Shown piece by piece: positions 6,501 through 58,350 of a DNA stretch of 64,000 nt. Made by a program: the position numbers and the translations under genes. Within the stretch, counting starts at the first letter, position 1; the number at the start of each line of letters is the position of its first letter. The notes beneath the pieces are model-generated. The model was not told where the DNA came from. It saw only the letters and a program-made list of their open reading frames with translations, and searched no databases. Source of the DNA: a virus; the IMG/VR virus record IMGVR_UViG_3300020036_004192, positions 1 to 64,000 of that record; one strand, given 5' to 3'.

Positions 6501-7740
6501 GGCAGCTAATATGCATAAAGATTACGCTGACAGAAAGACTGGTCGCAAACCTGTCACCTATTACCATCCTGATCTTGAAGATGTGCTTTCCAGCACATAC
6601 GGTCTGATGATCTATCAAGAAAGCATCATGAAGGTTGCCCAGAAAATGGCTGGCTATTCTCTGGCTGAAGCAGATATGCTCCGAAAAGCAATGGGTAAAA
6701 AAGATAGGAATCTTATTGCTGCTGAGCGGGACAAGTTTGTTCAAGGGTGCATAGCCCAGGGGTATGGAACTATAGGCCATTCTTTGTTCGACATCATGGA
6801 ACCATTTGCCGATTATGCTTTTAACGCTAGCCATGCTTACTCTTATGGCTTTATTGCGTATCAAACCGCATACCTTAAAGCTCATTATCCAGTCGAGTAT
6901 ATGGCAGCGTTACTAACCAGCGTGATAGATAAGTCAGATAAGCTAGCTATCTATTTAAATGAATGTAGACGAATGCAAATCCCCGTCTTGGTCCCAGACA
7001 TTAACAAATCAGGAGTTGATTTCGCGCCAACCGAGGACGGGGCCATCCTGTTCGCCATGGCAGCCGTAAGAGATGTTGGTCAGGCTGTATCGGTGAGCCT
7101 TGTTGAAGAGTACGGTGGCCCTTATTCCGATTTTCACAAGTTCATTAAGGATGGACCTATGGCTCTTATAAATAAGAAGGCACTTGGTTCGTTGATTAAT
7201 GCAGGTGCATTTGATTCTTTAGGCCATAGTCGCAAGGGCCTGCTAAGTATTTATGAAGATTCATTAAAGAAATCTAAGAGGCATCAAAAAGATGAAGATA
7301 ATGGGGTCATGACTTTGTTCGATGTGTTTGAACATGACGTGGCGATTCCCCTTGAAGAGTTTTCCCGTGAAGAGAAAATGGCTAAAGAAAAGGAAGTTCT
7401 TGGGGTTTATGTTAGTGATCATCCTTTAATTGGGATGGAGGGAATACTAGAACAGGGTAGGGAGTTTACTATAGGTGAACTAGTGGAGTCTAAGGGTAGT
7501 GCTTATGTAAGCACTACAGGTATGGTTAGTAATATACAAAAGAAGATAACTAAGAAAGGGGATTGGATGGCTACTTTTAATTTAGAAGATTTAGAGTGGA
7601 GTGTTGAAGCTGTCGTATTCCCAAAAGACTATCCAAAAGTAATATCTCTTCTTAACGAGGACTCTGTGGTATGGGTTAAAGGTAGAATGTTAGAGGATAA
7701 CAATAAGCTATCTGTATCTAAGGTAAAAACCCTAGCATGA
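3556..7740 (+). CDS. dnaE: DNA polymerase III alpha subunit (DnaE-type, PHP domain) interrupted by an intein
   Basis: PHP motif HLHLHTEYSMLDGA and the GAGRGSAAGSAVAYSLGVTNINP polymerase motif. TTG start with an AAGGA RBS upstream. The intein-free length of about 1088 aa fits a phage DnaE. Confidence 0.9.
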   Translation: MGKSFAHLHLHTEYSMLDGAAKVDGVVAAVAEDDQPAAAITDHGNMYGVIPFYKAAKAAGIKPIIGSELYQARDHRTERITSKGKVKDGGGETEDNLKQYYHITTLAETNEGYQNLIQLSSKAYLEGYYKKPKVDWELLEQHSRGIIATTGCLGGHVLQELLNKRRGKRDNYNAALAKAARLQDIFGKDNLFIEIQDHGLEEQTFTNPSLMRIAKKLNAPLVATNDSHYVHKHDAESHGALLCQPPGTKVLRVTGTTLAGNPRGSSWKVLVDATNIEDIRVGDRVVSWSGKDRKGRVHKLGNYVTQVGSRQYLGELIKVNLTSGEESRYTDDHICIVRLDSDPTDGNYVTYIMRQGSKYRIGSTQFQRIRSKNRPGTGVLGLIARAKEQNADAIWALTVHKTKAEANQEELFISQKFGIPTWSFYDVRKSLPRTDYYKPLWERTTGECDLEARAKNCISSYNRKFEYPFWDVRTLQPGQRRTNEIRACNLLSGMLMCAPGLSSSVHTYAGSGAWQAITVSRENYSGDVYSIDVSEDHTYIADGIVTHNCVQTGSRLSDPDRFKFTGEEHYIKTAEEMRYLFREVEVACDNTLLVAERCNVEIDFHRPSMPEFPLPIGFNDYKSYLHHLTFEGAVERWGQDLPDEVIYRLGYELDVISNLGLESYFLVVWDLIRHAKENGIRTGAGRGSAAGSAVAYSLGVTNINPIKYDLLFERFLNPDRVSMADIDMDFDSRYRDHMINYAAQKYGRDHVAQIITFSTIKARAAVQDAARVLGYEFDVGRNINRLMPKLIAGRSTPLHACFELKEEFKDGYGLAKDLRELYNRDPDTKKVIDVALGLEDLRRQDGIHAAAVIITKDPLTDYVPIQRKNKVNQDPEEAPIVTQYEATACDDLGLLKMDFLALRNLDVITDTLKHVKSRQGVEVDIDELPLEDGKTFDLLQSGHAIGVFQLESKEMRNLMKLLEPNSLDDVAALVALYRPGPMAANMHKDYADRKTGRKPVTYYHPDLEDVLSSTYGLMIYQESIMKVAQKMAGYSLAEADMLRKAMGKKDRNLIAAERDKFVQGCIAQGYGTIGHSLFDIMEPFADYAFNASHAYSYGFIAYQTAYLKAHYPVEYMAALLTSVIDKSDKLAIYLNECRRMQIPVLVPDINKSGVDFAPTEDGAILFAMAAVRDVGQAVSVSLVEEYGGPYSDFHKFIKDGPMALINKKALGSLINAGAFDSLGHSRKGLLSIYEDSLKKSKRHQKDEDNGVMTLFDVFEHDVAIPLEEFSREEKMAKEKEVLGVYVSDHPLIGMEGILEQGREFTIGELVESKGSAYVSTTGMVSNIQKKITKKGDWMATFNLEDLEWSVEAVVFPKDYPKVISLLNEDSVVWVKGRMLEDNNKLSVSKVKTLA
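4282..5199 (+). mobile_element. Class-1 intein (306 aa) in the DnaE PHP domain; Cys1 ... His-Asn, then Cys+1
   Basis: Host sequence ALL|CQPPGT...IVTHN|CVQTGS; removing the insert restores the conserved ALLCVQTG of PolIII alpha. Terminal HN followed by Cys. No clear LAGLIDADG motif was seen. Confidence 0.8.
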
Positions 7741-12204: not shown

Positions 12205-15153
12205 GTGGCAGATGTAGAAGGTTATCTTTTAGATAAGAAGTGGCCTTTCAAGAGAGCAGGGAACAATGAAATTCATGGTCCCTGCTTCTTTTGTAACGAG
12301 GATCAGTCTTCAAGGGGAAGATTGTATATTAACGTTGACCCAAGTGGCGACCCTCCTGGGCTGTTCACTTGTTTCTTATGCGACGAACGTGGTGCACTAA
12401 ATAAGCTTCGTAAGCATTTCGGTGACCCAGTTTTGAAAGAGGATTCTCAAATAGAGAATTCTTATAGGGTGTCGCAGGTCTTGCAGTCAGCAGCAGAGCA
12501 CTACTACGAGTCTTTAGCTGAGAATGAATTTGCTTACGATTATCTTAAGGACGAACGTGGTTTAACTTTTGAAACAATTGAATCACATAAGCTAGGGTAT
12601 TCGGATGGCAAATCTCTTATACCATTACTGTTTAAGCAGGGGTTCACTAAAGAAGAGGTTATTGCGTCTGGCATGATGGACCAGTATGGCAGAGAATTCT
12701 TAGCAGGGTGCATCGCTATTCCTTATCTAAGCTTCGGTAAGGTGCTTCAAATTCGTGGACGGAAACTAGATAACTCTAAAAACAAATACCTAACCCCTAC
12801 TGGCCATAAAGCCAAACTGTTCAATGCGGATAGGGTGGCGACCAGCACGGAGGTCGTGGTTGCAGCCGGTGAGTTTGATGCGATGGTATTGGAGCAGTAT
12901 GGTTTTGACGCTGTTGGGGTTCCGGGAGAGCTATCATGGCAAGACGGTTGGAATGACTACCTATCTTCGGCTTCCAGGGTCTATGTCTGTCTAGATGCTG
13001 ACGAGACTGGCGCTCGTGGTGCAGAGAAGATTTCTATTTCGATTGGCGCTCGGGCCAAGATTGTCAAGATGCCGCCAGATGATGATGACGGCACAAAGAA
13101 TGACCCTACCGAATGGCTTATTGGTAAGCAACATTCTGCGGACGACTTTAAGATGTTGCTTATTAAAGCTAGGGGTGGTATTCTTCTAAGCGTAGATGAA
13201 GCATGGGATGAGTGGGAAGAAGATCGGTTCACTGGTGGATTGAAGCTTGGCATCGAATCTATAGATTCTCGCATCCAGCCAGGTCTGAAACCAGGCCAGG
13301 TTGCTGTTATGCTTGCAAAAACAAATGTTGGAAAAGGTCACCCCTTAGATACTGATGTTCCCACTCCTAATGGAATTAGAAAATGGGGAGATTTAGAAGT
13401 TGGAGACTATGTTTTTGGTAGCAATGGTCACCCAACTAGAATAACAGATGTATTTGACCGTGGGGTATTGCAGACATATAGGGTTACTTTTAGTGATCGC
13501 ACGTCTACTATTGTAGATGGTGATCATATTTGGACAGTTTTAGAGCGATATGGTCGTGAGAGAAAATGGATAAAATCTTCTAATTATTCAACAAAGGATT
13601 TGATGTCTAAGAATCTTCATGCTGGATATAAGAATAGAGAGTATCGTTACAAGATCCCCATGTGTTCTCCCGTCCAATACGATCATAAGGATTTACCTGT
13701 CGATCCGTACACCTTAGGCGCTTTGATATCTAATGGATACTTAGCTGGGGGTTCTGTAGCTTTAACCACCCCTGATCCCGAAGTGGCTGCTAGGGTGCGA
13801 GAGGTATACACTGTTGTAAAAATTAACCGTAAAGGTGATGTTTGTGATGCATATACAATTCATAATTTGATTTCTACCATTAGGGGGATGGGGTTAAATG
13901 TAAAAAGTGGTTTAAAGTTTATCCCGGAAGAGTATTTCGTCTCTTCGGTGGAGCAGAGAGTGGCATTATTGCAAGGACTTATGGATGGTGATGGCAGTAG
14001 TAGACAAAATCAGAATCGCAAGTCATGTAATTATTACAGTTCATCTAGACAGCTTTTGAAAGACATGATAAGGCTTGTAACTTCTCTCGGTGGTACTGCT
14101 ATGGAATCTTGGATTCAGAGGAATGAAGATGTTGTACCGGAAGGTCAATTGTCAATTATGTTACCAGATGAGATAAAAGCATTTTCATCTATTAGGAAGA
14201 ATATAGAACCTACGGTAATAAATAAGACAACCCCGATGCGAGCTATAGTATCAATTAAGCCTGAGGGCGAGTCTGAGATTAGGTGTATTTCTGTAGACTC
14301 TGAGGATTCTTTATATCTCATTGAGAAGTCTCATATTGTTACACACAATACTATTATGATTCTCAATATCTTCCATAGATTATTGATGTCAGATCCTAGT
14401 AAGAAGATATTGTTTGTCTCTTTAGAGCAAACGCGGGCTGAGTGGTTCGAACGTGCTAGACGGATCTATAGGTTCTATAATCCGCAAGCTAGTGATAGAG
14501 ATTGTCTGGATTTCTTTAGAGATAGACTTTTAATTATTGACAAAAACCGTGTAACCCCCGATGAATTTATAAACTGCGTAGAGCAGTACGAGTTTGAACT
14601 AGGTGCTAAGCCAGATTTTGTTGGTGTAGATTATCTAGGTTACTGGGCAAGGTCCTTTAAAGGTGAGGGGTACGAACGCACTGGCGCAGCCATCATGGAA
14701 ATGAAGGCTATAGCTAAGGATTTGAAGTTAACGATATTCACACCGCATCAGGTGAACCGTGGGACTAAGTTTGGTGAAGAGATTGAAGCTGATAGTGCTA
14801 GAGACGCTGGCACTGTAGAGGAAACTGCAGATTTCGTATTCTCTTTATTTTCAGATGACAACATTAAAGGCAGGCAGGAGGATGAAAAAACTGGTGAAGT
14901 TAAGATGAGAATTCTTAAGTCAAGACACGGAGGTAAGAATGCCTTGACTTCTTTCCAGTTCGCTCCTTTGTCTCTAGCTATGATCCCGCAGGGCGACCCC
15001 TTAGTCTTAAGAGCTAAAGATGAGCTTAAAATGGAGCAGCAGCGTGATAACTTTGAGACTGCAATCTACCGGCATGCTACGGGTGATAGGAGAATTATTG
15101 TACCAGACGATGACTTGTTTAACTGGCAGGCAGAATTAGGATTGGGAGAGTAA
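12205..15153 (+). CDS. Bifunctional primase-helicase (T7 gp4-like: Zn-finger plus TOPRIM primase plus DnaB-family helicase) containing an intein
   Basis: Zn motif CFFCNE...CFLCDERG, TOPRIM VVVAAGEFDAMV, Walker A AKTNVGK|T split by the insert, and DnaB-like downstream motifs. Confidence 0.85.
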   Translation: MADVEGYLLDKKWPFKRAGNNEIHGPCFFCNEDQSSRGRLYINVDPSGDPPGLFTCFLCDERGALNKLRKHFGDPVLKEDSQIENSYRVSQVLQSAAEHYYESLAENEFAYDYLKDERGLTFETIESHKLGYSDGKSLIPLLFKQGFTKEEVIASGMMDQYGREFLAGCIAIPYLSFGKVLQIRGRKLDNSKNKYLTPTGHKAKLFNADRVATSTEVVVAAGEFDAMVLEQYGFDAVGVPGELSWQDGWNDYLSSASRVYVCLDADETGARGAEKISISIGARAKIVKMPPDDDDGTKNDPTEWLIGKQHSADDFKMLLIKARGGILLSVDEAWDEWEEDRFTGGLKLGIESIDSRIQPGLKPGQVAVMLAKTNVGKGHPLDTDVPTPNGIRKWGDLEVGDYVFGSNGHPTRITDVFDRGVLQTYRVTFSDRTSTIVDGDHIWTVLERYGRERKWIKSSNYSTKDLMSKNLHAGYKNREYRYKIPMCSPVQYDHKDLPVDPYTLGALISNGYLAGGSVALTTPDPEVAARVREVYTVVKINRKGDVCDAYTIHNLISTIRGMGLNVKSGLKFIPEEYFVSSVEQRVALLQGLMDGDGSSRQNQNRKSCNYYSSSRQLLKDMIRLVTSLGGTAMESWIQRNEDVVPEGQLSIMLPDEIKAFSSIRKNIEPTVINKTTPMRAIVSIKPEGESEIRCISVDSEDSLYLIEKSHIVTHNTIMILNIFHRLLMSDPSKKILFVSLEQTRAEWFERARRIYRFYNPQASDRDCLDFFRDRLLIIDKNRVTPDEFINCVEQYEFELGAKPDFVGVDYLGYWARSFKGEGYERTGAAIMEMKAIAKDLKLTIFTPHQVNRGTKFGEEIEADSARDAGTVEETADFVFSLFSDDNIKGRQEDEKTGEVKMRILKSRHGGKNALTSFQFAPLSLAMIPQGDPLVLRAKDELKMEQQRDNFETAIYRHATGDRRIIVPDDDLFNWQAELGLGE
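13336..14349 (+). mobile_element. Class-3-type intein (~338 aa) with LAGLIDADG homing-endonuclease domain in the helicase P-loop (between Lys and Thr)
   Basis: No Cys/Ser at intein position 1 (GHPLDTDV). Block B DGDHIW (Trp), block F RCISVD (Cys), terminal HN then Thr+1, giving a WCT signature. LGALISNGYL and LLQGLMDGDGS are LAGLIDADG motifs. Confidence 0.7.
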
Positions 15154-19366: not shown

Positions 19367-19995
19367 TCAACCTGGAACCTTCGCATGAAAATTTAGATTT
19401 GGTTTTATTTAACATTGTAACAGTCCATTTGTTTTGGACCCATGATAGCCTGCAGAATGGATAGATCGCATAATGCTCATATAAGCTTATCATGGTCCAT
19501 TTGGGAGTTAAATACATTTGGTGGAGGTGTTCGCGTTCGAAGCGAAGTACACCGAACTAACATGTAGTATCATATGACTATTCCCACTTCAAGGTAGGTG
19601 GGTCACCTTTCACTGTCTTTCCAGCAGTCATAGATTACTTTACAGTTTAACCCTCTGTCCTGTCTCCCCAGGATGCCCACCCGTCTTTTCGGGTCGTCAG
19701 GCTAATTGGATAAAAAGGTTTAACCAACCCCCCCCGCTTACTAGACTAGTGAAAGCTCTAGAGCGTCAAGCTCAGCCCAAATTGCGGCTGAGCTCTTCGA
19801 TGCGATATTATCGACATCTATTTTTGTACTAGCCGTTTTACATCTCTGCCAGTTAAGATGAGTCAAACACTTACACACTAACTTTCGGTGGCGAAGCCAA
19901 CTCTCACCCCCTTGAAAGCTTGCTAAGGGTTGCTGATACACACAACAGTTACATTCGGCAAGCCTACTAACTGTTGCCAACCCTTACGAAGCTAG

Positions 19996-20069
19996 TGGCG
20001 TGGACAGGATTTGAACCTGCGACCTTCTGGTTATGAGCCAGACGAGCTACCAGACTGCTCTACCACGCT
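19996..20069 (-). tRNA. tRNA-Met (anticodon CAT; could instead be a lysidine-type Ile2), CCA not encoded
   Basis: Hand-folded cloverleaf: acceptor AGCGTGG/CCACGCC with an unpaired A1:C72, D-arm GAGC/GCTC, anticodon loop CTCATAA, T-arm GCAGG-TTCAAAT-CCTGT. Confidence 0.8.
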
Positions 20070-22849: not shown

Positions 22850-24865
22850 CTAAGGAATTTCACAATGGTCAGTGTTACAGAAACGCTCACCCTGTGCTTC
22901 ATTTAACTTTGACTTATAGAACTTAATAAGCTTCTTGCCCGATTGCGCAGCAAGCACCTCAGCCTCCGTAGAAGGCTCTAGAGGGGCCTGTACGTAGCTT
23001 GTACCCTCTTTGCTGATAGGAAGGAAGGAAACGCTCTTAAGGCTGCCCTGGAACGATCTGAGAAGAGGCGCAATCTGATCGGCCTCGGTATCCTTATCGA
23101 AGGATACGGTGACTGAAATCATATTATCTGACCAATACTTCTGTCCCATCGCAGCCAAGTGTGCTTTCTCCCAGATAGAAACTTCACGTTCACTTCTAAC
23201 ATTTAACCCTGTTACGGGGAACTCGACAACTACAGTTGAAGTAGGGTCATCTACGCTTGGTTCAATGGGGTATCCGGCATCTTCAAGAATTTGCACCATC
23301 GGATCGACCTTATGAAATCTCATTCGTCTTGTGAAGAAACCTGAGGTTGTAGGCCAGTGAAAACCTGAGGTAGTAGAAGCAATCAATGAAGTGCTTCCAG
23401 CAGGCTTACCTGTGGAAAGTCGAATAGACTCCCTGACCCCCAGCCAAGCCGAATACTTTTTATCCAAACCTCTTAGGTAATCGTATCCTTTGTCCATCCA
23501 TTCTTGCATTTCAAACCATGAACGGTTTTCGATGAAGTCTACAACACCCGTTATTGATACACCGATTCGTCGGTTGCGTGTGATAACTTCGTTTGTTTCA
23601 CCCCAAGGTGATGTTAGAAGAACCACGGCCTTAGCGTACATGTACGCATGCTTCATTGACGCTTTAAAGTCTTCAAGCGAGTCATGGTGTGCAGGATAAA
23701 GTTCTGATAGGCAGCATAGCTCTGATGATTCTAATGGAATCTCTGCACAAGGGTTTGTAAGATTTGCTTTGTCCTTGAAGTCAGCGGGATCTTTTAGTCT
23801 ACCATAGTTTGCCATGGTGTCAACCCAAATAATGCCTGGTTCTCCATTTACCGCAATCTTATCAACTAGATGATCTAGGTTATCTCCGTTGCGAGCAATG
23901 ATGGAGTTATTTGAAGTCCATGCCCATCCATCTTCTCCGGTTCGTTCTTTGTTTTCTTCTAGTTCCCAGTTCTTTAAGTTAACATAATCGTCGTCACTTG
24001 CATCACCTAGGCTTAGTAGCGCACTTCTTCGTGCCCCACCGGCCACAACGGCTTTACCAATCTTGTTCATAATGTCAACGATGTCACGTGAGGTAATTAG
24101 TTTACCTTCACGGTTAGATAACTGGGACACTAATGTTTCGTGCAGGGTCTTTAGTGGCCCTGGACCTGAGGCGTTCCCACCGAACCTCTTTAGTGGGGCA
24201 CCTGCTGGTCTAATCTGTGAATAATCAAAGATAACAGTGGGACGGTTCTTAAAGAAGAATGATTCCAGAAGAATACCTACAGATTTTGCCCATTCTTCTC
24301 TAGTGTCACCGATTACATATTCGATAGTTTCTTCTGTAGGGTTATGTAAGGTGAGATTGCCTGCGCCCCGAGTGTCAAACCCAACGCCTTCACCACGCAT
24401 TGACATTTCCATTAGTCTAACAAATGGGAAAGTTGCTTCATATGCCGAGTGGTGTGAAATCTTTTCAGTCGTAACGGCAGCGCAATTGATCAGGGTTGAA
24501 ATATCCCCTTCTTCATGAACCATCTCTGTCCCCATGTTAGCCATGCCCCTACCGGGCGGCGTCCATTTGAATGCAAACATTCTAGCGTAAGCATCTTCTG
24601 CCGACTTCTGCGCCTTGAACTCATTCCAAGGTGTCTTGTTGCGCTTGCAGTTATCCTTTAAGATGGAATAGTAGCCCTCAATACATCTACGACATGTTTC
24701 ATACCATTGTTCTTTTGTCCCGTCAGCCTTTTTGCGGCTATACTTTGAGACGAAGACTAGTTCTGATAGGTAGTTCCCACCACCTATGTCTAATCCCCAG
24801 TTGGGACGAACTTTTTTGTAAGTGTTTACGAACTCATCGGACAGTTTGAATGTTAAAAACTCCAC
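22850..24865 (-). CDS. nrdJ: Ribonucleotide reductase, class II (B12-dependent, NrdJ-like)
   Basis: NPCAEIPLES active-site loop with Cys, the GGARRS region, large size (671 aa), and adjacency to thioredoxin. Confidence 0.7.
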   Translation of the reverse strand: MEFLTFKLSDEFVNTYKKVRPNWGLDIGGGNYLSELVFVSKYSRKKADGTKEQWYETCRRCIEGYYSILKDNCKRNKTPWNEFKAQKSAEDAYARMFAFKWTPPGRGMANMGTEMVHEEGDISTLINCAAVTTEKISHHSAYEATFPFVRLMEMSMRGEGVGFDTRGAGNLTLHNPTEETIEYVIGDTREEWAKSVGILLESFFFKNRPTVIFDYSQIRPAGAPLKRFGGNASGPGPLKTLHETLVSQLSNREGKLITSRDIVDIMNKIGKAVVAGGARRSALLSLGDASDDDYVNLKNWELEENKERTGEDGWAWTSNNSIIARNGDNLDHLVDKIAVNGEPGIIWVDTMANYGRLKDPADFKDKANLTNPCAEIPLESSELCCLSELYPAHHDSLEDFKASMKHAYMYAKAVVLLTSPWGETNEVITRNRRIGVSITGVVDFIENRSWFEMQEWMDKGYDYLRGLDKKYSAWLGVRESIRLSTGKPAGSTSLIASTTSGFHWPTTSGFFTRRMRFHKVDPMVQILEDAGYPIEPSVDDPTSTVVVEFPVTGLNVRSEREVSIWEKAHLAAMGQKYWSDNMISVTVSFDKDTEADQIAPLLRSFQGSLKSVSFLPISKEGTSYVQAPLEPSTEAEVLAAQSGKKLIKFYKSKLNEAQGERFCNTDHCEIP

Positions 24866-27775: not shown

Positions 27776-28202
27776 TTAAACTCCATAGTTTCTCATCTGC
27801 AGCAAACCCGTCATCATCTGTTTCAGTAACAGCTTCCATATGTTCTCTAATGGCTGCCTCTAGCCGTGAGTCTTTATCAAACGCTTTCACTAGGCGCTTA
27901 ACCTCAACAAGCTTACGGTCAACACCGTTCTTAAACTTCACGGCATTATGTTTCCATTTTGCATTAGAAGCCAGGAAACTTTGCCACCCTATCTCGTCAC
28001 TTGTTTGCAGATAGTTGGCCCGGTTTTCAGCGACCTCTATTTTGTTGGCAGTCAACTGTAAGTCTACATCATGTTTGAGTTTCAGTAACGTATCATAGAA
28101 TCTATAAACATTATCTGATTGACGTAGCCAGTCAGAGGTAGGTTCATCTAACGTACCTCTGATGTCGGCGTTAACCAAGGATGTGAATTCTTCGTTATCC
28201 AT
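27768..28202 (-). CDS. Hypothetical protein (144 aa)
   Basis: Tiled ORF. Confidence 0.5.
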   Translation of the reverse strand: MDNEEFTSLVNADIRGTLDEPTSDWLRQSDNVYRFYDTLLKLKHDVDLQLTANKIEVAENRANYLQTSDEIGWQSFLASNAKWKHNAVKFKNGVDRKLVEVKRLVKAFDKDSRLEAAIREHMEAVTETDDDGFAADEKLWSLID

Positions 28203-28806
28203 TATCTGCTAGGAAAGTGGCACCTGTAGAGCGTGTTGCAGTTAGCCCCGTAGACACGCTACTATATGCTGAGAGTGTCTGTCCACCGGCATGAGCGTAA
28301 CCCATAAACCGCTTTGAGTCTACAACGCCACCAAAGGTCCGTTCCAGCCATTCTGAGCCACCGGAACCTAGGAACATGAACTCCCACCCATCATTCTGCT
28401 TAGAGGCGATGATGTCGTTTAGATCGCTGCCTTTAGTCCAAACATGACTAGCATTATCCATGCCATCTGTAAGGATTACGCAAACAACTTTCCCACTGAA
28501 ATCATTATTCTGATCCAACCATAGCTCTGTCGCCATAATGGACTTACCTACAGCGTCAAGAAGTGCTGTGTTGCCATTGGGAACGTAGTCGTTAGTCTCT
28601 GAGCCTAAGGGCGGAATATTCTCTAGCGGGACCGCAATATACCGGGCGTCAACGGCAGTCGAAAAGAGTGTAAGGGATAGTCGAGCCTCGCCTTCTACCG
28701 CCTTCTGTTCTTCAATGAATGAATTGAATCCGTCAATTGTTGCCTGACGTACACTATTCATTGATCCTGAACGGTCAATCACGAAGTTAATTAAACAGTC
28801 TGTCAT
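28195..28806 (-). CDS. von Willebrand factor A (vWA) domain protein
   Basis: MIDAS motif VIDRSGSMNS near the N-terminus; 203 aa. Confidence 0.7.
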   Translation of the reverse strand: MTDCLINFVIDRSGSMNSVRQATIDGFNSFIEEQKAVEGEARLSLTLFSTAVDARYIAVPLENIPPLGSETNDYVPNGNTALLDAVGKSIMATELWLDQNNDFSGKVVCVILTDGMDNASHVWTKGSDLNDIIASKQNDGWEFMFLGSGGSEWLERTFGGVVDSKRFMGYAHAGGQTLSAYSSVSTGLTATRSTGATFLADNG

Positions 28807-28819
28807 TGTTCTCTTTTCT

Positions 28820-29050
28820 TTAAGCTAAAATGCCACGGTTGGCAAGTATGATTTTAACAGCAGCCCGCTGAGAATGCAAATCTCTACCCTCTTGTGTAAC
28901 AGGTCTAAGTTGCTGTTCTAATTGTCTTAGTTGTTCTGACACATCAACATATATGTCAAGTAAAGTATCGGATGATAGTTCTGAATAGTTTAGATCAGTT
29001 GGCTCTTGAATCTCAATGCCTGAGATAATGGAATCAAAGTCTTTATCCAT
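28820..29050 (-). CDS. Hypothetical protein (76 aa; the ORF track runs to 29173 but an internal Met avoids overlap)
   Basis: The ATG at 29050 sits 2 nt after the upstream stop. Confidence 0.4.
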   Translation of the reverse strand: MDKDFDSIISGIEIQEPTDLNYSELSSDTLLDIYVDVSEQLRQLEQQLRPVTQEGRDLHSQRAAVKIILANRGILA

Positions 29051-29231
29051 CCAACCAACCTTGTCCCGAACATTCATAGCAATCCAGTTGTACTGGTATT
29101 GGCTCATTATGCCATCCGGTATCTTCATTCCAAACAACCCATCCAGCTTCATTTGTAATGTGCTGCCCATCACCTGCTTCTATAACATGAAAGACATTGC
29201 CATCAGAGCCTCTAACTTGTAGTAGAATCAT
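29043..29231 (-). CDS. Hypothetical Cys-containing protein (62 aa)
   Basis: Tiled ORF with clean composition. Confidence 0.4.
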   Translation of the reverse strand: MILLQVRGSDGNVFHVIEAGDGQHITNEAGWVVWNEDTGWHNEPIPVQLDCYECSGQGWLDG

Positions 29232-29335
29232 ATGCGTTTGCTATTTCTTTTAGAATTGTTTGTATAATATCATCTGCTACTAAAACAAATACAGAAGCGA
29301 TGACTATGGGGTAGAGGACTGCCCGACCCAGAATC

Positions 29336-29533
29336 CTATCCATTTGCTACAATAACCTTACTAATTTTGTTCATTATATCAATGATGTCCAGTGAAGTAA
29401 TTAATTCATTTTTACGATTAGAAAGTGGGGCACCTACTGGTCTGATTTCTGAATAATCATAGGTTAGAATAGGACGGTTGTTGGAAATGAGTGCAATTAA
29501 TTTAGCCCATTCTTCTCTCGTTGGTTTTTTCAT
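29336..29533 (-). pseudogene. Decayed remnant (65 aa) of a second class II RNR (NrdJ) gene
   Basis: Aligns to the intact NrdJ at 22850..24865 (TREEWAK, NRPxxxxDYSxIRPxGAPL, LITSxDIxDIMNKIxKxxVAxG) with an internal deletion. Confidence 0.7.
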
Positions 29534-29536
29534 AGA

Positions 29537-31105
29537 TTATAATGTCCCAAAAACATCACGCATATCCGTTCCTGATGTAAGGCGCTTAACCGTAGTGACC
29601 TTCCCATCGCAAATTGTTCGAAGAGGCTCATCCATTATAGTACCACCAATGACCACCCCATAGACATTAAATCCTAGGCGATCCTGTTCTTTCTTGAACG
29701 CTTCAAGCCATGCCGGATCGACTGCACATTGCCCGTCTGTGCAGAACACAATGTCAGCTTTAACGGCACCAGTTTTCTCATATTGTACTTTTAGGATATC
29801 AAGCGCCTTAGACAAGGGAGTCATGAAGCAGGTGCCTCCTGAAAAGAACACCTCAGCAAAGTCAATTAGCTGTTCGATCTGAACATTACGGATATCAGAA
29901 AAATCAAAATGTTTAATCTGTCTTGGTCCACCGAAATGGATGCCATGGAATTCACGCTTCTGTGACTTAGCGATCTGCAATAAAGTCAACCCGACCGCTT
30001 TAGCCCAGAGTTCTCTGTCGCCTGACATTGACCCTGACCCGTCCTCGCAGAAGATTATACCACCCTTAGCAAGCTTTTCTTCGCCCTTAAGCTTATACTG
30101 TAGCAGTCTTTCCTCATAGAACCTACGAATGAAGTCGTTACGTAAAGCCTTATGCTTTAAGGCAAGCAATTCGTTGGCGATAATTCTTGACAGGTCATTG
30201 CCTGTTTCAATATCATAGATTTCGTCACGTGAATGGATGGTTCGCTTCTGTCGTTCAGCGAATGCCATGCGAATCATTGGCCCGATCAGTTCAGATATTC
30301 TCCTGAATCGATCATTGGAAATCTTCTTCGCTAACTCTAGACGCTTATTGGCAGGGAGCCTCTTCAACTCGCCTGGGGACATGCCCCATGACTCAGCCTG
30401 TTCGATGCTTTCCTGTTCACCAATGGCGTCACCTGCCATTTTCTTTAGAGCCGACTGGATATCAGCGGTCTTGCCATCTAGGGCATCTTGGAGAGCTTGT
30501 GCCCCTTCGTCTATGGCTTTCTGTAAAGCGTCTTTTGCATCTTGAACAGCACCTTTTTGTTCCTGATAGTTCTGCACTTCTGCTTCATCAGCGTCATCTT
30601 CAAGCTGGGACAGTAGATCGTCAATGTCTGATTCCTGCTGATCCAGGCCAGCCATCTGATCCATTTTCTTCTGTAGTTCCTCAGCCGCTTTCTGTTCCTC
30701 TTTGAGTTTATCGAACAGGATTTCTAGCTCAGGTTCCATCGTGATAGAAGACAGGGCGGTTGCCACATCATCATTCACTGTGTAGGTGCGAAGCTCCTTG
30801 AACTCTTTTAGTTCCTGTGCTTCCTGTGCTACACGATGATTGACAAGATGGGAGGCCCGCATGTTGCCACGTGTCTCTAATTGTGGCATTGCTTTAAGCA
30901 GAGCGTAGAAGTTATCAGCGTAAGCCGATGAGCCTGTCGTTACAACATCTGCCAGCTTCTCTTCGGACTTACGGAGTGCCTTCATTTCTTTGAGGATTGA
31001 CTGGTAGGATTCCTCATCCCATTTGTCACGGATGATAGCATTTTTGCTGGCCTCATCGGGTGACTGTTTGTTGTTGTTTAAGAATCCTCTTAGGAAATCA
31101 CTCAC
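29537..31105 (-). CDS. vWA-domain protein with long N-terminal coiled coil (CobT-like partner of the AAA+ ATPase)
   Basis: C-terminal vWA with MIDAS FCEDGSGSMSG; acidic coiled-coil N-terminal half. Confidence 0.7.
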   Translation of the reverse strand: MSDFLRGFLNNNKQSPDEASKNAIIRDKWDEESYQSILKEMKALRKSEEKLADVVTTGSSAYADNFYALLKAMPQLETRGNMRASHLVNHRVAQEAQELKEFKELRTYTVNDDVATALSSITMEPELEILFDKLKEEQKAAEELQKKMDQMAGLDQQESDIDDLLSQLEDDADEAEVQNYQEQKGAVQDAKDALQKAIDEGAQALQDALDGKTADIQSALKKMAGDAIGEQESIEQAESWGMSPGELKRLPANKRLELAKKISNDRFRRISELIGPMIRMAFAERQKRTIHSRDEIYDIETGNDLSRIIANELLALKHKALRNDFIRRFYEERLLQYKLKGEEKLAKGGIIFCEDGSGSMSGDRELWAKAVGLTLLQIAKSQKREFHGIHFGGPRQIKHFDFSDIRNVQIEQLIDFAEVFFSGGTCFMTPLSKALDILKVQYEKTGAVKADIVFCTDGQCAVDPAWLEAFKKEQDRLGFNVYGVVIGGTIMDEPLRTICDGKVTTVKRLTSGTDMRDVFGTL

Positions 31106-31264
31106 TATCTCTCCGCTCTATTAACTAACTCTTGCCCTTGCTTGTAACCCTCATTATATGCTTTTTGTATATCAGAACGATATTCTCTGGGGCCGATACA
31201 AACAAGCATACCACAATTAATTAGACCGTACTTCTCCATAAAAGCTTCTGCTAATACCTCAGCC

Positions 31265-31528
31265 TTACTCATCATCTAATGCCCTGCATACACTGCACTT
31301 ATCTCCATATTTAGAAGAAACCCAAGTGTGGACATGAGCACCTAAGTCTCTAGCTGTAACTTCTATTTCTCTCCCAGCGTAGACTACATGCATAGAATCA
31401 AGTTCCGTGACATTAGTGTACCGAATGTGCTCCCGTACGTCAGCCAATTCGTCATTAAACTCGCCTCGGTCAAGTAGGTATAGAAGGGAACTACATGTAT
31501 CTGCAAGGAACCTTTCAGCTACCCCCAT
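31265..31528 (-). CDS. Hypothetical protein (87 aa)
   Basis: Sits between the AAA+ and vWA genes; ATGA overlap. Confidence 0.45.
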   Translation of the reverse strand: MGVAERFLADTCSSLLYLLDRGEFNDELADVREHIRYTNVTELDSMHVVYAGREIEVTARDLGAHVHTWVSSKYGDKCSVCRALDDE

Positions 31529-32703
31529 TATAGCTCTCCCTTAAATCCGTCCTTCATTACCCGAGTAGCAACCTCGTTAACCTTTGCGTCAGCAAGATCA
31601 ATAATCTCGGACTTGCGGCCTGACTCTTCGATCTTAGCGTGAAGTTCCTTAAGAGTGATCTTGGCCTTCTTAAGCTTCGTCCAGATTTCCACTGACTGAC
31701 TGGCAGCCTGGTTATCGTTATCTGCATCAGACAGAACCTTGTTAAGATCCTTATCCAGCTTCTCCACTCGCTCTAGAATATCTAGGGCTTCCTTCTCTAG
31801 AGGGTTAGCTAGCTCTAGGATAACACGCTCAGCCACTCTAGCATCTTCGGGCCGACCCCACATTACATGGCGTAGAATACGTAGGTCATCTACTTCGACC
31901 TCATCACGACCGTTCAGATAAGCCTCAGCCTGGATGATCGGCAGACATTCAGCGAACCGTCGCTCAGACGGCTCAATGCCCTTAGCTGCAAGGTCGTCAC
32001 GAAGGGCACGCATGATTTCTAGAATCTCTGTTGAGATTTTTACCTGCTTGACGCCTTCCTGTGCTTCCAGGATGTCATTCCAAGTCAGAAACTTCTCTAC
32101 ATCCTTCTGTGTTGTGCTGTTGTGGGTGTCAAGCATCCGAATGAAGTTCCCAGGCTCGTGAAGTGGGCCTACGTTAAACCGAAAATGCAATCTATCCCAA
32201 AGCGCCCATAGCCCATCATCTGCGGGCATCTCATTGGAGGCCGCAAAGATGGAGGATAGCGGCACACGTTCCTCATCTGCACCGTTGAAGAACAGTCTCT
32301 CGTTGGAGATGGTTAGCAGGGCGTTAAGAATAGACGAGTTGGCCTTGAAAATCTCATCTAGGAACGCAATAGCAGCGGTTGGAAGCTTGCGATCAGTTAC
32401 CCTAACATAGTTACCTTTCTCCATTTCAACAATAGAAGGCGGGCCGAGCACTTCCTCAGGGGTAGTGTACTTTGTTAGCAGCCACTGGAAGTAAGGATTG
32501 TCTAGGTGAGAGTCTGAGAAATCTACACGATCAACTAACTCACGAATCATATAGGACTTGCCTACACCGGGCGGGCCGATCATGAAGAAATGCTTCTGTG
32601 AAACTAGAGCATTCAGCATTGCATGAATTTCACGCTGACGTTCGAAAACGCTTTCGTTTAGGTCTGCTTCTAGAGCAGAGAACTTATCTGTTAAGGTTGT
32701 CAT
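31528..32703 (-). CDS. MoxR/CobS-like AAA+ ATPase
   Basis: Walker A IGPPGVGKSYM, Walker B AFLDEIFKA, sensor motifs, about 390 aa. Confidence 0.75.
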   Translation of the reverse strand: MTTLTDKFSALEADLNESVFERQREIHAMLNALVSQKHFFMIGPPGVGKSYMIRELVDRVDFSDSHLDNPYFQWLLTKYTTPEEVLGPPSIVEMEKGNYVRVTDRKLPTAAIAFLDEIFKANSSILNALLTISNERLFFNGADEERVPLSSIFAASNEMPADDGLWALWDRLHFRFNVGPLHEPGNFIRMLDTHNSTTQKDVEKFLTWNDILEAQEGVKQVKISTEILEIMRALRDDLAAKGIEPSERRFAECLPIIQAEAYLNGRDEVEVDDLRILRHVMWGRPEDARVAERVILELANPLEKEALDILERVEKLDKDLNKVLSDADNDNQAASQSVEIWTKLKKAKITLKELHAKIEESGRKSEIIDLADAKVNEVATRVMKDGFKGEL

Positions 32704-33189: not shown

Positions 33190-34326
33190 TCATACCAGTA
33201 CATCCTTATTTACTAGCTTAAGTGAACCAAAAGGATCTGGTTCCGACTTGTCATTACGGATTCTCATGAACGCAGGCTGATATAGCCGATTACTTTTCCC
33301 TACATATAAGTAGCGAATCTCAACGATGTCACCAATCTTTACCCTACGAAGATTAGTTGCGCTCATAGTGCAATTACCGATGGGGATATCGTCAGCACAC
33401 TCTAGGGAAATACTTGCCTGTTCATTAATGCCGGTCACTCTTAGGTCAGCCGTTTCAACGAACTTAAACTTAAGTAAGTTCGTTGTCCTTGCACCTGACT
33501 GGTATGGAGCAGTCATTCGTCTGGCAATTACGCCTTCTGAATTAGATGCGTCAACCTTATCTAAGAAATCTTCTTTATCCTTGGAGGTAAGATGCGAAGG
33601 GAGTTGCATGATGTGATTAGGTGCCCAATGATTGAAGATCGTGTTGAGGCAGTCTAATCTCATATGGTAAGTGGCGTCTTGAATGATATTAACACCGTTT
33701 GTGTTGATCACTTTGATTAGATCAAAGACATAATATTTGCGGTTAATATATTCACCATCGAATAGCCATACACCTTTAAAGAATTCTGGATTCGAGAACT
33801 CTTTAATCACAGGACGTAAAACTTTTACCTGGCGAGTGTATTCTTTACCATCCCTATTGTAGACGGTAACCGCTCCGTTGTCAACCTCGACTATCATTCT
33901 GTCTCCGTCAACTTTTTGCTGAAAGCAGAATGAGTTATCGCTGACTAGTTCCATTAGTCGTTCTTTGTCCATGGATTCTGCGAGCATTGGAAGATGCATT
34001 TTGAACTCTTCTAACGTTAAGTTATTCTTCTCTAGGTTGCATTTCTTGCAGGCTAGGCATAAGTTTTCTATAGCATCCGTACCTTGTCTGCTAATGGGGG
34101 TCTTGTGGTCAACAGTTAATGTTTCTTCGTTAAGTTCTTGTTTGCAGTAGAAACATTTGTTATCCTGCTGTTCTTTTAGGATTTTGATTTTAGTCTGAGA
34201 TATCTTCTTTCGCCTATGGATTTTGAATCCGCATCTGAGACAGAGGCGTCCGTCCCAATTGTGCTTCTTTTGTTTGCCACATGGCTGAAGATCATTCCAG
34301 GCTAATTGTCTATCCGCTATTGCCAT
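33190..34326 (-). CDS. Fusion protein: N-terminal HNH endonuclease/Zn-ribbon domain plus ATP-dependent DNA ligase (minimal NTase plus OB)
   Basis: HNH motif CFYCKQELNEETLTVDHKTPISRQGTDAIENLCLACKKCN. Ligase motifs I KVDGDR, III FDGEY, IV EGVIARR, V LLKFKF, VI IRNDK. Confidence 0.7.
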   Translation of the reverse strand: MAIADRQLAWNDLQPCGKQKKHNWDGRLCLRCGFKIHRRKKISQTKIKILKEQQDNKCFYCKQELNEETLTVDHKTPISRQGTDAIENLCLACKKCNLEKNNLTLEEFKMHLPMLAESMDKERLMELVSDNSFCFQQKVDGDRMIVEVDNGAVTVYNRDGKEYTRQVKVLRPVIKEFSNPEFFKGVWLFDGEYINRKYYVFDLIKVINTNGVNIIQDATYHMRLDCLNTIFNHWAPNHIMQLPSHLTSKDKEDFLDKVDASNSEGVIARRMTAPYQSGARTTNLLKFKFVETADLRVTGINEQASISLECADDIPIGNCTMSATNLRRVKIGDIVEIRYLYVGKSNRLYQPAFMRIRNDKSEPDPFGSLKLVNKDVLV

Positions 34327-44509: not shown

Positions 44510-45469
44510 CTACCTGCTAACCTGATAGAAATCAGTCCACCCATAGTTTGCACTATTCTGATATGCAATCTGCTTACCCATCAACTCCCCAAGTCGTTCA
44601 TCTCTTGCGCCAACTAGAGGATGAAGGACCGCAAGAGCCTCGTCCGGGTCTGAGGGCACCTCTACGTCTTTCAGGTTACTCATGAACTCGTAGTTCCCTA
44701 ACAACAGAGACATTTTGGCATACATTTCCCAACGCCAAGCTGAGCGTGTAGAATTCCACACTCTAAACTCCCAAGTGTCGTGACGTGTGCGGATTGCAAG
44801 ATTCGAGTGCCTGTCCGCTTCATAATGATTGTTGAATAGGTTAGCTAGCCACCATTCCCTAGTTGCCCCTCTAGGCTGACCAACCTCGACCTCTAAGGTG
44901 CTGGGCAGGGCGTCAATCTTTTTAACGTACTCACTGAACCCGGATAGCTCTCTTCTCCTAGCTTCCCCCTCTGGGGCATAATCGTACCATAGGGTGTGAA
45001 GGTTATACAGGTTTGATTCCTGAACTGACGTATTCATCGGACGGAGGCCAGGGAATCTTCCATTAGCCAGCCGGATGACTGCATCCTCCCACCGCATAAA
45101 CTGCCATAATAACTCATGGCACTGTAGAAAGTTTTCTGTAACTGGGACAACGTGAACATGAACGCCAGCGTTTGTTCCAGGCACAGCGTCAACTTCGACA
45201 GCGACTTCCTGAAGACAGTCTAGAACCTCTACAAATTCAGAGAACTCGTTTTCGTTGAAGACTTTTGTGATTAGCTCTCCAGAACAACTAGAGTCACGTT
45301 GCGCTCTTAGGGTCACAGTGCGACTCATGCAGTTGTTGCAGTCACAGTGGTATGAGTGTAATGAATCTGAGGGCAGAAGCTCAGGGTAAAGCATGTGCGT
45401 CTTCTCTACGAGAAGTTCAGCATTGTCCTGAAATTCGATTTCCATTCCAAAAGTGGTCAATAGTCCCAC
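44510..45469 (-). CDS. Phage amidoligase-like protein (paralog 1)
   Basis: Shares GxHVHV and EFRVWNSTRSAWRWE signature blocks with the 49170..49985 paralog; family assignment by recall of the phage amidoligase family, not verified. Confidence 0.45.
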   Translation of the reverse strand: MGLLTTFGMEIEFQDNAELLVEKTHMLYPELLPSDSLHSYHCDCNNCMSRTVTLRAQRDSSCSGELITKVFNENEFSEFVEVLDCLQEVAVEVDAVPGTNAGVHVHVVPVTENFLQCHELLWQFMRWEDAVIRLANGRFPGLRPMNTSVQESNLYNLHTLWYDYAPEGEARRRELSGFSEYVKKIDALPSTLEVEVGQPRGATREWWLANLFNNHYEADRHSNLAIRTRHDTWEFRVWNSTRSAWRWEMYAKMSLLLGNYEFMSNLKDVEVPSDPDEALAVLHPLVGARDERLGELMGKQIAYQNSANYGWTDFYQVSR

Positions 45470-46095
45470 ATCCCATAGTTGTAGTAGTAGCTTTTAGTGT
45501 CTGGCTTAGTTAAGGTTACAGGCTCCATCCTTTTACAGCCGATCAGAACCGTGTTACCCACTAGCTCCTTGTGTACCTTTTCAGCCTTTTTGATAGCTTC
45601 TTCTCTAGTCCCAATAATGGAGTGAATTAGTGCAGCACCAGTTTGGCTAATAGGGAAGGTTGTTAGCTTCCATCCAGGGAGCTTTTCAACTTCCTTTGGT
45701 GGTGCTGTATAGCTTCTGCTTACCTTATTCTCTCGTGCTTTATGTAGACTAAGGTATCTGTTAACCTTGTTATGAAAAGCTATGCCAGCAGCAACATCGT
45801 TAGGGTTTTTCTCTAGATGAATAAGAAGCTTGCCTAGCTTTTCCTTGGCCTTATTGGAAATTTCAATCCATGGAGAGTCTTTCCACTGTTTATTGTGACG
45901 TAGCCGTGATACTTCTTCTTCAACTAGATCATACCATTCAGAAAAGCTGATGTAATCGGGAAGCGGCACGGAATAGGTCGAATGCTGGATTAGTCCGTCA
46001 GGGAGCTTTTTTCTGACAGGTACGACTATTCTGATAGTCGATCGCCGCTGGGGTGCCGATCCTACGACGGCTCCGGTTACTTGTACAGTTGTCAT
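45457..46095 (-). CDS. Hypothetical protein (212 aa)
   Basis: Tiled ORF. Confidence 0.45.
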   Translation of the reverse strand: MTTVQVTGAVVGSAPQRRSTIRIVVPVRKKLPDGLIQHSTYSVPLPDYISFSEWYDLVEEEVSRLRHNKQWKDSPWIEISNKAKEKLGKLLIHLEKNPNDVAAGIAFHNKVNRYLSLHKARENKVSRSYTAPPKEVEKLPGWKLTTFPISQTGAALIHSIIGTREEAIKKAEKVHKELVGNTVLIGCKRMEPVTLTKPDTKSYYYNYGMWDY

Positions 46096-46102
46096 TTTTT
46101 CC

Positions 46103-47553
46103 TTAGTTCACTGGAACAAGGGACTTGTCAGGTCCCACTACGTAATCCTTGCCAGTTGAAGTTCTCACATACTTGTCCTCACTTGAGTCCACATAGGTTC
46201 CTAGATCCTCTAGGATCAACTGGAACGTGTTGAGCATCTCTGCTGTTAGACTAGTCCCAGAGTCAAGGATGTATTGTGTTGCCTGATTGAATACAATGAA
46301 ATCTTCGTTGCTTCGTGAGACTAGAACAGTGTCGAAGTCATCATACTTGTTGATCGGGAAGTACCCCTTGATCATGTATTCTCCGTAGGGGAACGCTTGG
46401 GGTAGGGAAACAATCTGCCCAACGATGGGGACATTGCCTACGCCTGTCATCACCCAGTTGCCAGGGCGAACGAAGCCGTGAAGGTCCCGAACGGTGTCAA
46501 TCACAGTGTCAGGCTCGTCACTGATATGCTTCATGAACCTATCAATAGACGCTTCACGTTCGACATACTCTTCGTCGTATTTGCCATTCCCGACGTAAGT
46601 GCCTTCGCTGAGATGGTTAACAACCGTCCCATGGGAGGCAGCAAGGGAATGAAAGGAAGAATCTGACATCACCTTTGCGATGATTTCAGTCATTGACTCG
46701 TCGCTGCCAGTTGTAGTAACAGGCAGAGTGCCCTGAGTCGGAGTGTTGGTAGATCGATTGACGTAGCCTGATCCAGTGGTGTACGTCTTCTTGGTAGGCG
46801 TCTTGTCTTCCCAGGTATTGACTGCCACGATCTTGCCAGCGTCAATCTCCATCAAAGTACCGTCAGTCAATGAGTCAACGAACAGTAGTTCCACGTCTGA
46901 AGCTGCAGCAGCCTTGTTGAGAATTTCAGCTTCAGAAGCGAAGATGAAAGACCCACCGGGAGTCTGGGCAAACACGAACGGGGACCCAGAGATTTTGGCT
47001 ACACGGAACGTTGTGGGATTCCCATCAATTTCCTGCCATGCAATTGCAGCAGAACCAGAAATCTCGTTAAGGATTTCTGGAATGGAACCGGCGATCAGAT
47101 GCTTGCCATCTGAGTCCTTCTCTAGCCCATAGGCGATGGCAGCAAAGATCGCTTCCGTGTCTACCTGGGCAATTCGTCTACCTGGGCCGATCTTCTGGAA
47201 CAAGTTGTAGTCGTTGTGCATAACTCCGTTATGAACACCAACGATGTTGCCGGTAATGATCGGGTGATTGTTGTGGTTGTTTTCGGGGCTACCCTGGGTA
47301 GCCATCCTTGTATGGAGAATGACATTCCGAGCGTCACTCGGTAGGTCAAGCTGTTCTACGAAGCTGGTGGCTGCCATTGCATCCTTCTGGATCATTAGCA
47401 CACCGTCAGTGTCGTACCATGCGGCTCCTGAGGCGTCTCGGCCTCGGGACTGGATTCCAAGAAGTAGGTTCTTGGCTAGTTGAGCGGCGTCGATGACGCC
47501 TGCGTCTTGATCTGATAGATTAATTCCTGCGATCCCACAAATGAGGACCACCC
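46103..47553 (-). CDS. Class II (Ntn) glutamine amidotransferase domain protein
   Basis: N-terminal (M)VLICGIAGI with the nucleophile Cys near the N-terminus, then HTRMATQG...NNHP; 482 aa; GTG start at 47553. Confidence 0.65.
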
Positions 47554-55078: not shown

Positions 55079-55165
55079 TGGTGAGCCGAGTAGGATTTGA
55101 ACCTACGATGTATCTTACGTCACGGATTTACAGTCCGCTTGCTTCAGCCTCTTGCATACCGACTC
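55079..55165 (-). tRNA. tRNA-Tyr (anticodon GTA), long variable arm, CCA encoded
   Basis: Hand fold: acceptor GAGTCGG/TCGGCTC, anticodon loop CTGTAAA, 14-nt variable arm, T-arm GTAGG-TTCAAAT-CCTAC, 3' A-CCA. Confidence 0.85.
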
Positions 55166-55329
55166 ATGAATTTTCAGATCCTAGTTAGGAACGGTGTTGC
55201 ATCATACTTATCTAGGATGCGGTTTGCTTCCTTACGAACTTTGTCATCCATGGAACACAGATGATGCCTAGCCCATTCTATTTCTAGGGTTTCTAGGTCT
55301 TTAACTTGGCTAAGTACCATTTTATTCCT

Positions 55330-55683: not shown

Positions 55684-55685
55684 GA

Positions 55686-55853
55686 TTACCACCCCCACCG
55701 TTCGCCGCCAACGCTAGACCTGTAACTCTCTTTGAGAGCGACGAGAGCCTGCACTTCTGCAGCCCAAGCAATTCGTTCCTGAGCATTTGTTGCTGCCTCA
55801 AGTTCAACGACTGCATGATTCAGCCTAGTGCAAAGCGTTTTCCAATCTGGCAT
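55686..55853 (-). CDS. Hypothetical small protein (55 aa, MPDWKTLCTRLNHAVVELEAA...), below the ORF-track cutoff
   Basis: The ATG lies 1 nt after the upstream stop; helical composition. Confidence 0.3.
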   Translation of the reverse strand: MPDWKTLCTRLNHAVVELEAATNAQERIAWAAEVQALVALKESYRSSVGGERWGW

Positions 55854-55854
55854 G

Positions 55855-56049: not shown

Positions 56050-56052
56050 AAG

Positions 56053-58106: not shown

Positions 58107-58120
58107 CAGAGAAGACGCAC

Positions 58121-58339: not shown

Positions 58340-58350
58340 TGTGTTTCTCC

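Follow-up and report, generated by a model that had tools for sequence, protein, structure and literature searches.

A 65-codon partial copy of a class II ribonucleotide reductase gene in a large phage: candidate mini-protein or relic

This article concerns a 65-codon open reading frame (ORF), here called the mini-ORF, on the minus strand (29336..29533) of a phage sequence of 64,000 nucleotides (nt). That whole stretch, positions 1 to 64,000 of IMG/VR virus record IMGVR_UViG_3300020036_004192, is what we refer to as the window. Judged by sequence comparison, the mini-ORF is a partial copy, at an ectopic site, of nrdJ, the phage's gene for a class II ribonucleotide reductase of the RTPR type. 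We give an even chance to the reading that it encodes a reductase-derived small protein, maintained in a variable slot of the genome.

The window belongs to a phage contig of 130.7 kb (JGI 3300020049 Ga0206652_1000009). As the stretch with the mini-ORF is 100% identical in contigs of two different JGI samples, it is no assembly artefact. Isolated phages that are close at the DNA level were not found in INPHARED (megablast), nor did single-protein scans of IMG/VR yield close relatives of the window phage.

Homology and Limits of the Mini-ORF

Aligned with residues 188-277 of the resident NrdJ, the mini-ORF product reaches a BLASTP E-value of 1e-20 with 40 identities and gaps of 5 and 24 amino acids (aa), corresponding to 15 and 72 nt in the DNA, both in frame. 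An earlier note on this DNA, written from the sequence alone, had pointed out that a 65-aa ORF resembles the intact class II reductase, and the nucleotide alignment of 29336..29533 to 22850..24865 reproduces this similarity in three blocks of 78-91% identity separated by the two in-frame gaps. The blocks lie at 29358-29433 (78% over 77 nt), 29424-29482 (81% over 59 nt), and 29500-29521 (91% over 22 nt). When the rest of the window is searched with NrdJ by tblastn, the mini-ORF site is the sole match below E 0.1 (E 4e-15), and a repeat search of the window independently recovers the same pair (family D2). The homology to class II ribonucleotide reductases as a family is significant too, with matches to TIGR02505 (2.7e-5) and phrog_367 (6e-4).

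The homology starts at codon 5 and runs to the last codon, directly after which the stop codon follows; the first four codons (MKKP) and the sequence past the stop have no counterpart in nrdJ. There is neither a frameshift nor a premature stop, and the limits of the homology are thus the limits of the ORF. The usual marks of a decaying pseudogene (frameshifts, stops, homology reaching beyond the ORF, and a ratio of non-synonymous to synonymous change, dN/dS or omega, near 1) are absent. No other reductase remnants were found near the mini-ORF or in relatives, and the 64 kb window holds no further fragment paralogue, so the mini-ORF is not one of many scattered gene pieces. Its ATG stands 3 nt after the TAA stop of the upstream vWA gene and in the same frame (TAA-TCT-ATG).

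One further similarity touches the start of the homology. A helix of the vWA protein that follows its metal ion-dependent adhesion site (MIDAS) reads GDRELWAKAVG (30016..30045, residues ~361-371) and resembles GDTREEWAKSVG of NrdJ (24283..24310, residues 186-197), the latter being where the mini-ORF homology begins; the vWA gene shares 15 of 18 nt with the mini-ORF here. We judged this likeness to be due to chance (E 0.2-0.5, and ~150 aa away from the junction). The match could have acted as microhomology in the origin of the mini-ORF.

Origin From the Resident Gene and Rates of Change

When 120 reductases of the clade are compared with the mini-ORF, the resident NrdJ comes out as the best match, sharing 35 of 57 residues in the common columns (median 29). 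The codons tell the same story: at conserved residues, 22 of 37 codons (59%) are identical between the mini-ORF and the resident gene, compared with 36-44% for three other reductases, one of which has an equal GC content at third codon positions (GC3), while the codon usage of the window predicts only 13.1 of 37 (P 0.002). The synonymous distance (dS) between the two is 0.97, whereas every comparison with other reductases is saturated. Owing to this codon excess and the unsaturated dS, the mini-ORF is, on the evidence of its codons, a paralogue of the resident nrdJ or has been converted by it.

Three-point distances place essentially all non-synonymous change on the branch of the mini-ORF (dN ~0.21 versus ~0). 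Among the changed positions, S12L, F17S, F25Y, G42N, R48L, G58S, and A60V affect residues that are at least 85% conserved in the 120 reductases. Over 61 codons, the pairwise omega is 0.21, and that of the mini-ORF branch is ~0.4 if dS is assumed to be split equally between both branches. An omega of this size is intermediate between strict constraint and neutrality and favors neither gene nor relic. In view of all this, the description of the mini-ORF as a "decayed second NrdJ copy" in the earlier note can be kept in part: it is a partial copy of the phage's own nrdJ, as the 22 of 37 codons testify, but its decay is doubtful given the intact ORF and an omega of ~0.4.

What the Mini-ORF Keeps of the Reductase

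The parent gene, nrdJ (22850..24865, minus strand), encodes an intact, intein-free monomeric class II reductase of 671 aa, and the source segment of the mini-ORF lies at ~24054..24304 within it. The Pfam matches, PF21995 (1.6e-10) and PF17975 (3e-21) among them, comprise RNR_Alpha, RNR-II_ins_dom, and the barrel domain; the insertion domain covers residues 175-239. The RTPR profile TIGR02505 scores 279 bits, which is under its equivalog cut-off of 340 bits, and the RTPR of Lactobacillus leichmannii (PDB 1L1L) is matched at E 5e-78. With its long loop-1 insertion domain, the RTPR profile match, and the similarity to 1L1L, the resident enzyme is of the monomeric RTPR type.

An AlphaFold2 model of NrdJ (mean predicted local distance difference test, pLDDT, 88.6) has a helix at 189-204, a strand at 209-214, the loop-1 core at 215-235, and helices at 236-249 and 259-275 (alphaB), followed by loop 2 (276-282) and a strand (283-288). 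Of these elements, the mini-ORF retains alphaB, the strand at 209-214, the opening half of the loop-1 core (YSxIRPxGxPL), and most of helix 189-204, which is the final helix of the loop-1 insertion specific to monomeric enzymes. Its 24-aa deletion takes out KRFGGNASGPGPL and the following helix (236-249), and the ORF ends ahead of loop 2 (ARRSA). Consequently, the specificity site is not there in full, as the GGxxSGP part of loop 1 and loop 2 are both missing. Also gone are the catalytic cysteines, the B12 domain, and the ten-stranded barrel with its thiyl-radical cysteine (NPCAE at ~371-375 of the resident enzyme). With every catalytic element missing, the product of the mini-ORF cannot reduce nucleotides.

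The long loop-1 insertion of monomeric class II enzymes is packed against alphaA and alphaB, where it mimics the dimer interface and forms the specificity site (PMC9669993). The mini-ORF is therefore a piece from in and around this dimer-mimic and specificity-site region. Compared with RTPR/NrdJm (1L1L), it maps to the loop-1 insertion, the loop-1 core, and helix alphaB, but it covers only 65 of the 671 residues, has neither barrel nor B12 domain, and is not an enzyme.

A Second Mini-Protein

An exhaustive phmmer search with the mini-protein through 1.84 billion representatives returned only one other short protein, the 62-aa P0257 (E 4e-4), next to a few reductases and some WD40 repeats, the latter being spurious repeat matches. 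P0257 and the mini-ORF align ungapped over 57 residues with 37% identity (21/57), and their limits nearly coincide, differing by no more than 2 aa at the start and 3 aa at the end. Both share a spacing that sets them apart from the enzymes: the W-to-YS distance is 18 in both mini-proteins versus 22-27 in reductases, and the PL-to-DIM distance is 14 versus ~38. P0257 comes from an unrelated contig of 2.6 kb with 33% GC, where it is tightly packed, overlapping the upstream gene by 11 nt and being followed by the next gene 5 nt later. No vWA or AAA+ gene adjoins it in these 2.6 kb.

The two mini-ORFs are not of one lineage. P0257 reads IRPKGMPLKTT(K)GG, which matches the loop-1 core of another reductase clade (found in IMG/VR L035/L036 as IRPKGMPLKTTGGYASGP), and its deletion starts after GG, whereas that of the window mini-ORF starts after PL; on account of the other-clade signature and the different deletion edges, we rejected a single origin of the two. 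The 21 of 57 identities between P0257 and the mini-ORF are no more than what P0257 shares with ordinary reductases (16-25/57). Going by these signatures, similar products arose on two or more occasions, either anew or through conversion by the respective resident reductase. Both possibilities make chance decay less likely, although two sequences are few to judge by. Should the P0257 genome's own reductase read ...IRPKGMPLKTTGG... with an excess of shared synonymous codons, this would speak for recurrent origin or conversion. We also considered a shared loss of invariant residues as a signal of selection and rejected it, since the overlap is no greater than chance.

The Neighboring MoxR and vWA Genes

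Upstream of the mini-ORF lie, on the same strand, a ViaA-like vWA protein of 522 aa with the MIDAS motif DGSGS (29537..31105, minus strand) and its partner, a bpMoxR/RavA-like AAA+ ATPase of the MoxR type (391 aa; 31528..32703, minus strand). A stand-alone vWA protein of 203 aa (28195..28806, minus strand; phrog_7371) is found on the other side; this accessory gene is missing from the corresponding stretch in the relatives and has no demonstrated link to the mini-ORF. This layout agrees with what the earlier note had described. Its assignment of the pair as CobS/CobT-like, on the other hand, does not hold. The ATPase matches bpMoxR (1e-42), AAA_5, AAA_lid_8, and RavA (5e-58), and the vWA protein matches vWA domains and ViaA (1e-19), while neither protein matches any CobS or CobT model of Pfam or NCBIfam at E <= 0.01. 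CobN or other cobalamin genes were not found either among the ~30 larger ORFs covered by the Pfam scan of the window or in the flanks of four relatives; a weak CobU match on RecA reflects the P-loop.

CobS and CobT are themselves a pair of a MoxR-class AAA+ protein and a vWA protein, and this architecture is what the window pair has in common with the cobaltochelatase; the difference is that no CobS/CobT family model matches. The genes rather have the make-up of a RavA-ViaA-type pair, namely a MoxR core with AAA_lid_8, a MIDAS-bearing vWA partner, and an adjacency kept in four relatives. The likeness extends to the MoxR-vWA chaperone pairs of phages and archaeal viruses (PMC7824862; PMC3893208), in which these elements also occur together. 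It has its limits: the scores fall far below the equivalog cut-offs (197 of 681 bits for RavA and 71 of 500 bits for ViaA), and two small ORFs lie between the window genes. In phages, MoxR and vWA partners have been described as chaperone and cochaperone, and a part in virion assembly has been proposed for them (PMC7824862). As for the beta-propeller component of the bpMoxR ternary conflict system, four adjacent ORFs (56, 87, 117, and 119 aa) gave no Pfam match and the precomputed annotations of the flanking genes in the four relatives name no propeller family, though distant propellers may escape both.

Synteny was compared in four relatives (L003/4, L005/6, L007/8, and L016) whose vWA proteins are 50-56% identical to that of the window. 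In all four, MoxR and vWA stay together, accompanied by RuvB-like and DNA ligase genes, and in none of them is there a reductase or a remnant of one within 10 kb of the pair. The closest reductases (62-71% identity) are instead located beside DnaE and dCMP deaminase genes in three phages. The earlier note had proposed an ancestral NrdJ-CobT-CobS adjacency and had named relatives without a reductase at this position as the outcome that would speak against it; that outcome is what the four relatives gave. Since the link between the reductase and CobS/CobT fails, no new cofactor-handling pathway is implied. No evolutionary or functional tie between the mini-ORF and the MoxR-vWA pair was detected.

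What does vary between relatives is the region from vWA to the homologue of a conserved 117-aa gene (28820..29173), which is the slot that holds the mini-ORF. Most relatives have DUF6744 and small ORFs there, none of which was found anywhere in the window. The remainder of the slot, between the mini-ORF and the 117-aa gene (29174..29335, minus strand), contains only doubtful ORFs of 43 and 62 aa.

The vWA gene itself belongs to the conserved core of a large phage family. Over 150 homologues of its product occur on phage contigs, and the longest of these contigs measure ~115-150 kb. Several homologue clusters are lengthened to 800-880 aa (P0006, P0007, P0010, P0013, P0037, P0063, P0067; P0025, P0056) by insertions at ~residue 424 and ~109 in window numbering. 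Those at ~424 carry LAGLIDADG and are intein-like, while those at ~109 are without such annotation. Inteins in a vWA partner of MoxR are unusual, and they suggest core-gene status in this family. Finally, a weak Ku-like protein occurs in two of the four relatives (L003, 1960-2736; L005, 1646-2467), close to the ligase, RuvB-like, and MoxR-vWA genes. The company of Ku-like, ligase, and RuvB-like genes near the chaperone pair hints at an end-joining or repair module.

A Possible Regulatory Role

If the mini-ORF is kept as a small translated protein and not as dead DNA, its translation may be coupled to termination of the vWA gene 3 nt upstream. The product might then act as a microprotein that docks on a reductase, be it the phage's own or a dimeric enzyme of the host or a competitor, and alters its allosteric control or assembly. 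Docking suggests itself because the retained elements lie in or beside the specificity-site and dimer-mimic region. Taken on its own, we regard this docking mechanism as quite improbable.

MicroProteins, described mainly in plants, are small proteins that derive from larger ones, retain a surface for interaction, and exert their effect by titration. In form, the mini-ORF agrees with them, as it is a small single-module derivative that retains part of an interaction region and has a multi-domain parent in the same genome; it differs in that its interaction and any dominant-negative effect are only predicted. We know of no microprotein derived from a reductase. Small proteins that inhibit reductases do exist, for example, Sml1, Hug1, and Dif1 in yeast and Spd1 in S. 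pombe, and they provide a precedent for regulation through binding to the large subunit. These inhibitors, however, are not derived from a reductase, act on class Ia enzymes in eukaryotes, and have no sequence relationship to the mini-ORF. To our knowledge, no viral protein controls a reductase through mimicry of part of that enzyme.

The most far-reaching proposal would be that phages have, twice or more and independently, excised a helix-strand-helix module from different clades of monomeric B12-dependent reductases and kept a protein of 62-65 aa, which would dock on a reductase and retune or block the synthesis of deoxynucleoside triphosphates. This would make it the first reductase-derived microprotein regulator. 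The proposal is an unlikely one in our estimation.

Weighing the Explanations

The strongest competitor is that the mini-ORF is a dead relic, i.e., a partial duplicate of nrdJ or the last piece of a second copy, which drifts without function in a recombination-prone slot and has remained an ORF by luck. We consider this nearly as likely as a maintained mini-protein. The mini-ORF amounts to ~9% of its parent gene and has lost every catalytic element; all amino-acid change has fallen on its branch, including the seven positions of at least 85% conservation; the slot differs in content between relatives; the phage family is rich in inteins and homing endonucleases that promote rearrangement; and the mini-protein family is extremely rare. 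Against a relic, nucleotide identity of ~78-80% is too high for neutral drift over a branch dS of ~0.5, and two in-frame deletions, the lack of stops and frameshifts, and an ORF that coincides with the homology are, by rough estimate, each unlikely under drift. No further reductase remnants flank the mini-ORF, and an independently derived look-alike with the same ends and spacing sits between genes of an unrelated contig. The mini-ORF resembles phage gene remnants and pseudogene fragments in being a short, ectopic piece of a larger gene in a variable region, and it departs from them in its intact frame coextensive with the homology, its in-frame deletions, its omega of ~0.4, and its independent look-alike. 

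Several observations weigh against a maintained mini-protein in their own right. The omega of ~0.4 equally fits a copy that was once functional and then drifted. The public contigs with the mini-ORF that are open to comparison come from two places and two JGI samples and are all 100% identical to the window; the public data thus hold this phage as one sequence with zero variants, which makes a population-level dN/dS or selection test impossible. The overlap of the two mini-proteins in altered reductase-invariant positions is at chance level (6 observed, 4.5 expected), and only two members are known among ~15 billion proteins. A word-indexed search returned the mini-ORF alone, a profile scan of IMG/VR returned full-length reductases only, and so did tblastn of isolated phages (reductases only). 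Junction-specific DNA patterns had 0 matches in IMG/VR; one such pattern was run on JGI metagenomes and one on GTDB genomes, and apart from a PAS-domain protein in the former, each collection yielded just a single chance match in non-coding DNA. Modelled by itself with AlphaFold2, the mini-protein shows two helices at a pLDDT of 60, which is too weak a model to be used in a fold search, and the mini-ORF has no clear ribosome-binding site, promoter, or terminator. Three other explanations are far less probable than either a maintained protein or a relic. A by-product of inteins or homing endonucleases, with an extein flank moved ectopically along with a mobile element that was later lost, is improbable in our view. 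It would account for independent origins with similar limits, and inteins are at hand: the reductases of the clade carry them at no fewer than four sites, R280|S281 being 3 aa past the end of the mini-ORF, and the window has probable inteins in DnaE and the primase-helicase as well as an HNH domain fused to its ligase. Neither mini-ORF, however, has an intein or endonuclease remnant beside it, and no site is known at ~188 or in the deleted loop among 30 intein-bearing homologues. An ancestral NrdJ-CobT-CobS cluster, whose AAA+/vWA pair would serve cobalamin handling or reductase maturation, is still harder to credit. The mini-ORF does follow the vWA gene directly and in frame, the CobS/CobT pair is built alike, and the resident reductase is of a B12-dependent type. 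Set against this are the best matches to RavA, ViaA, and bpMoxR in place of any CobS/CobT model, the four relatives without reductase or remnant within 10 kb of MoxR-vWA, the closest reductases adjoining DnaE, the lack of a vWA or AAA+ neighbor of P0257 in its 2.6 kb, and the lack of a cobalamin gene among the ORFs scanned in the window. Least credible of all is a C-terminal extension of vWA by readthrough of the TAA, in spite of TAA-TCT-ATG being all in one frame. TAA is an efficient stop codon, and such a tail is missing from all of the over 100 normal-length vWA homologues (~503-563 aa), while the longer ones have internal insertions and not C-terminal additions; P0257, given the 11-nt overlap, is in a different frame from its upstream gene.

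Other Features of the Window

The nucleotide block of the window comprises a thioredoxin, MazG, and the 671-aa reductase. Other genes include DnaE and a primase-helicase (each probably with an intein), RecA, a RuvB-like ATPase, an HNH-ligase fusion, and an RNA ligase. The DnaE-type subunit alpha of DNA polymerase III (3556..7740, plus strand) is 1394 aa long, as compared with 1147-1163 aa in relatives, and residues 282-548 give a weak Intein_splicing match, which probably marks an intein. The primase-helicase (12205..15153, plus strand; DNAG_N, Toprim, and DnaB_C) has LAGLIDADG at ~583-632 and probably contains an intein as well; window positions 13348-14091 show weak similarity to reductase inteins. 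The ATP-dependent DNA ligase (33190..34326, minus strand) has 378 aa with an HNH endonuclease domain at its N terminus, whereas the ligases of the relatives are HNH-free and 261-269 aa long.

The reductases of the clade themselves were surveyed for inteins, and 30 of the 120 best homologues bear one. The insertion sites number at least four (~N127|C128, R280|S281, P372|C373, and ~500), and the intein at R280|S281, seen in P0168, has classic C...HN|S ends.

Five tRNA genes (Met-CAT, Tyr-GTA, Arg-TCT, Leu-TAA, and Ile-TAT) are present at 19995..20069 and within 55079..59847 (minus strand), four of them being clustered at 55-60 kb. At ~18000, where the genes turn from the plus to the minus strand, the GC skew switches from ~+0.17 to ~-0.1, and this marks a divergent module boundary or, possibly, a replication landmark. 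A tandem array of 12/18-nt units occupies 59957..60284; its minus strand would give GNG/GYG/GDG low-complexity sequence and its other frames (AV)n or (RQ/RL)n. Within 44510..47551 (minus strand), a gene with a weak match to Amidoligase_2 is followed, two genes downstream, by a class II glutamine amidotransferase; the ORF in between has 212 aa and no assigned family. This pairing is also found in some large phages. Rfam, the PADLOC defence-system models, and promoter and terminator scans added nothing useful.

Biological Meaning

Much of the contest in a phage infection turns on the supply of nucleotides. If both mini-ORFs are real proteins, they would represent a recurrent domestication of an enzyme fragment and would help to probe how the pseudo-dimer specificity site works in monomeric class II reductases. 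If, on the other hand, they are relics, they would be no more than the usual trace that recombination leaves in a mosaic phage genome rich in inteins.

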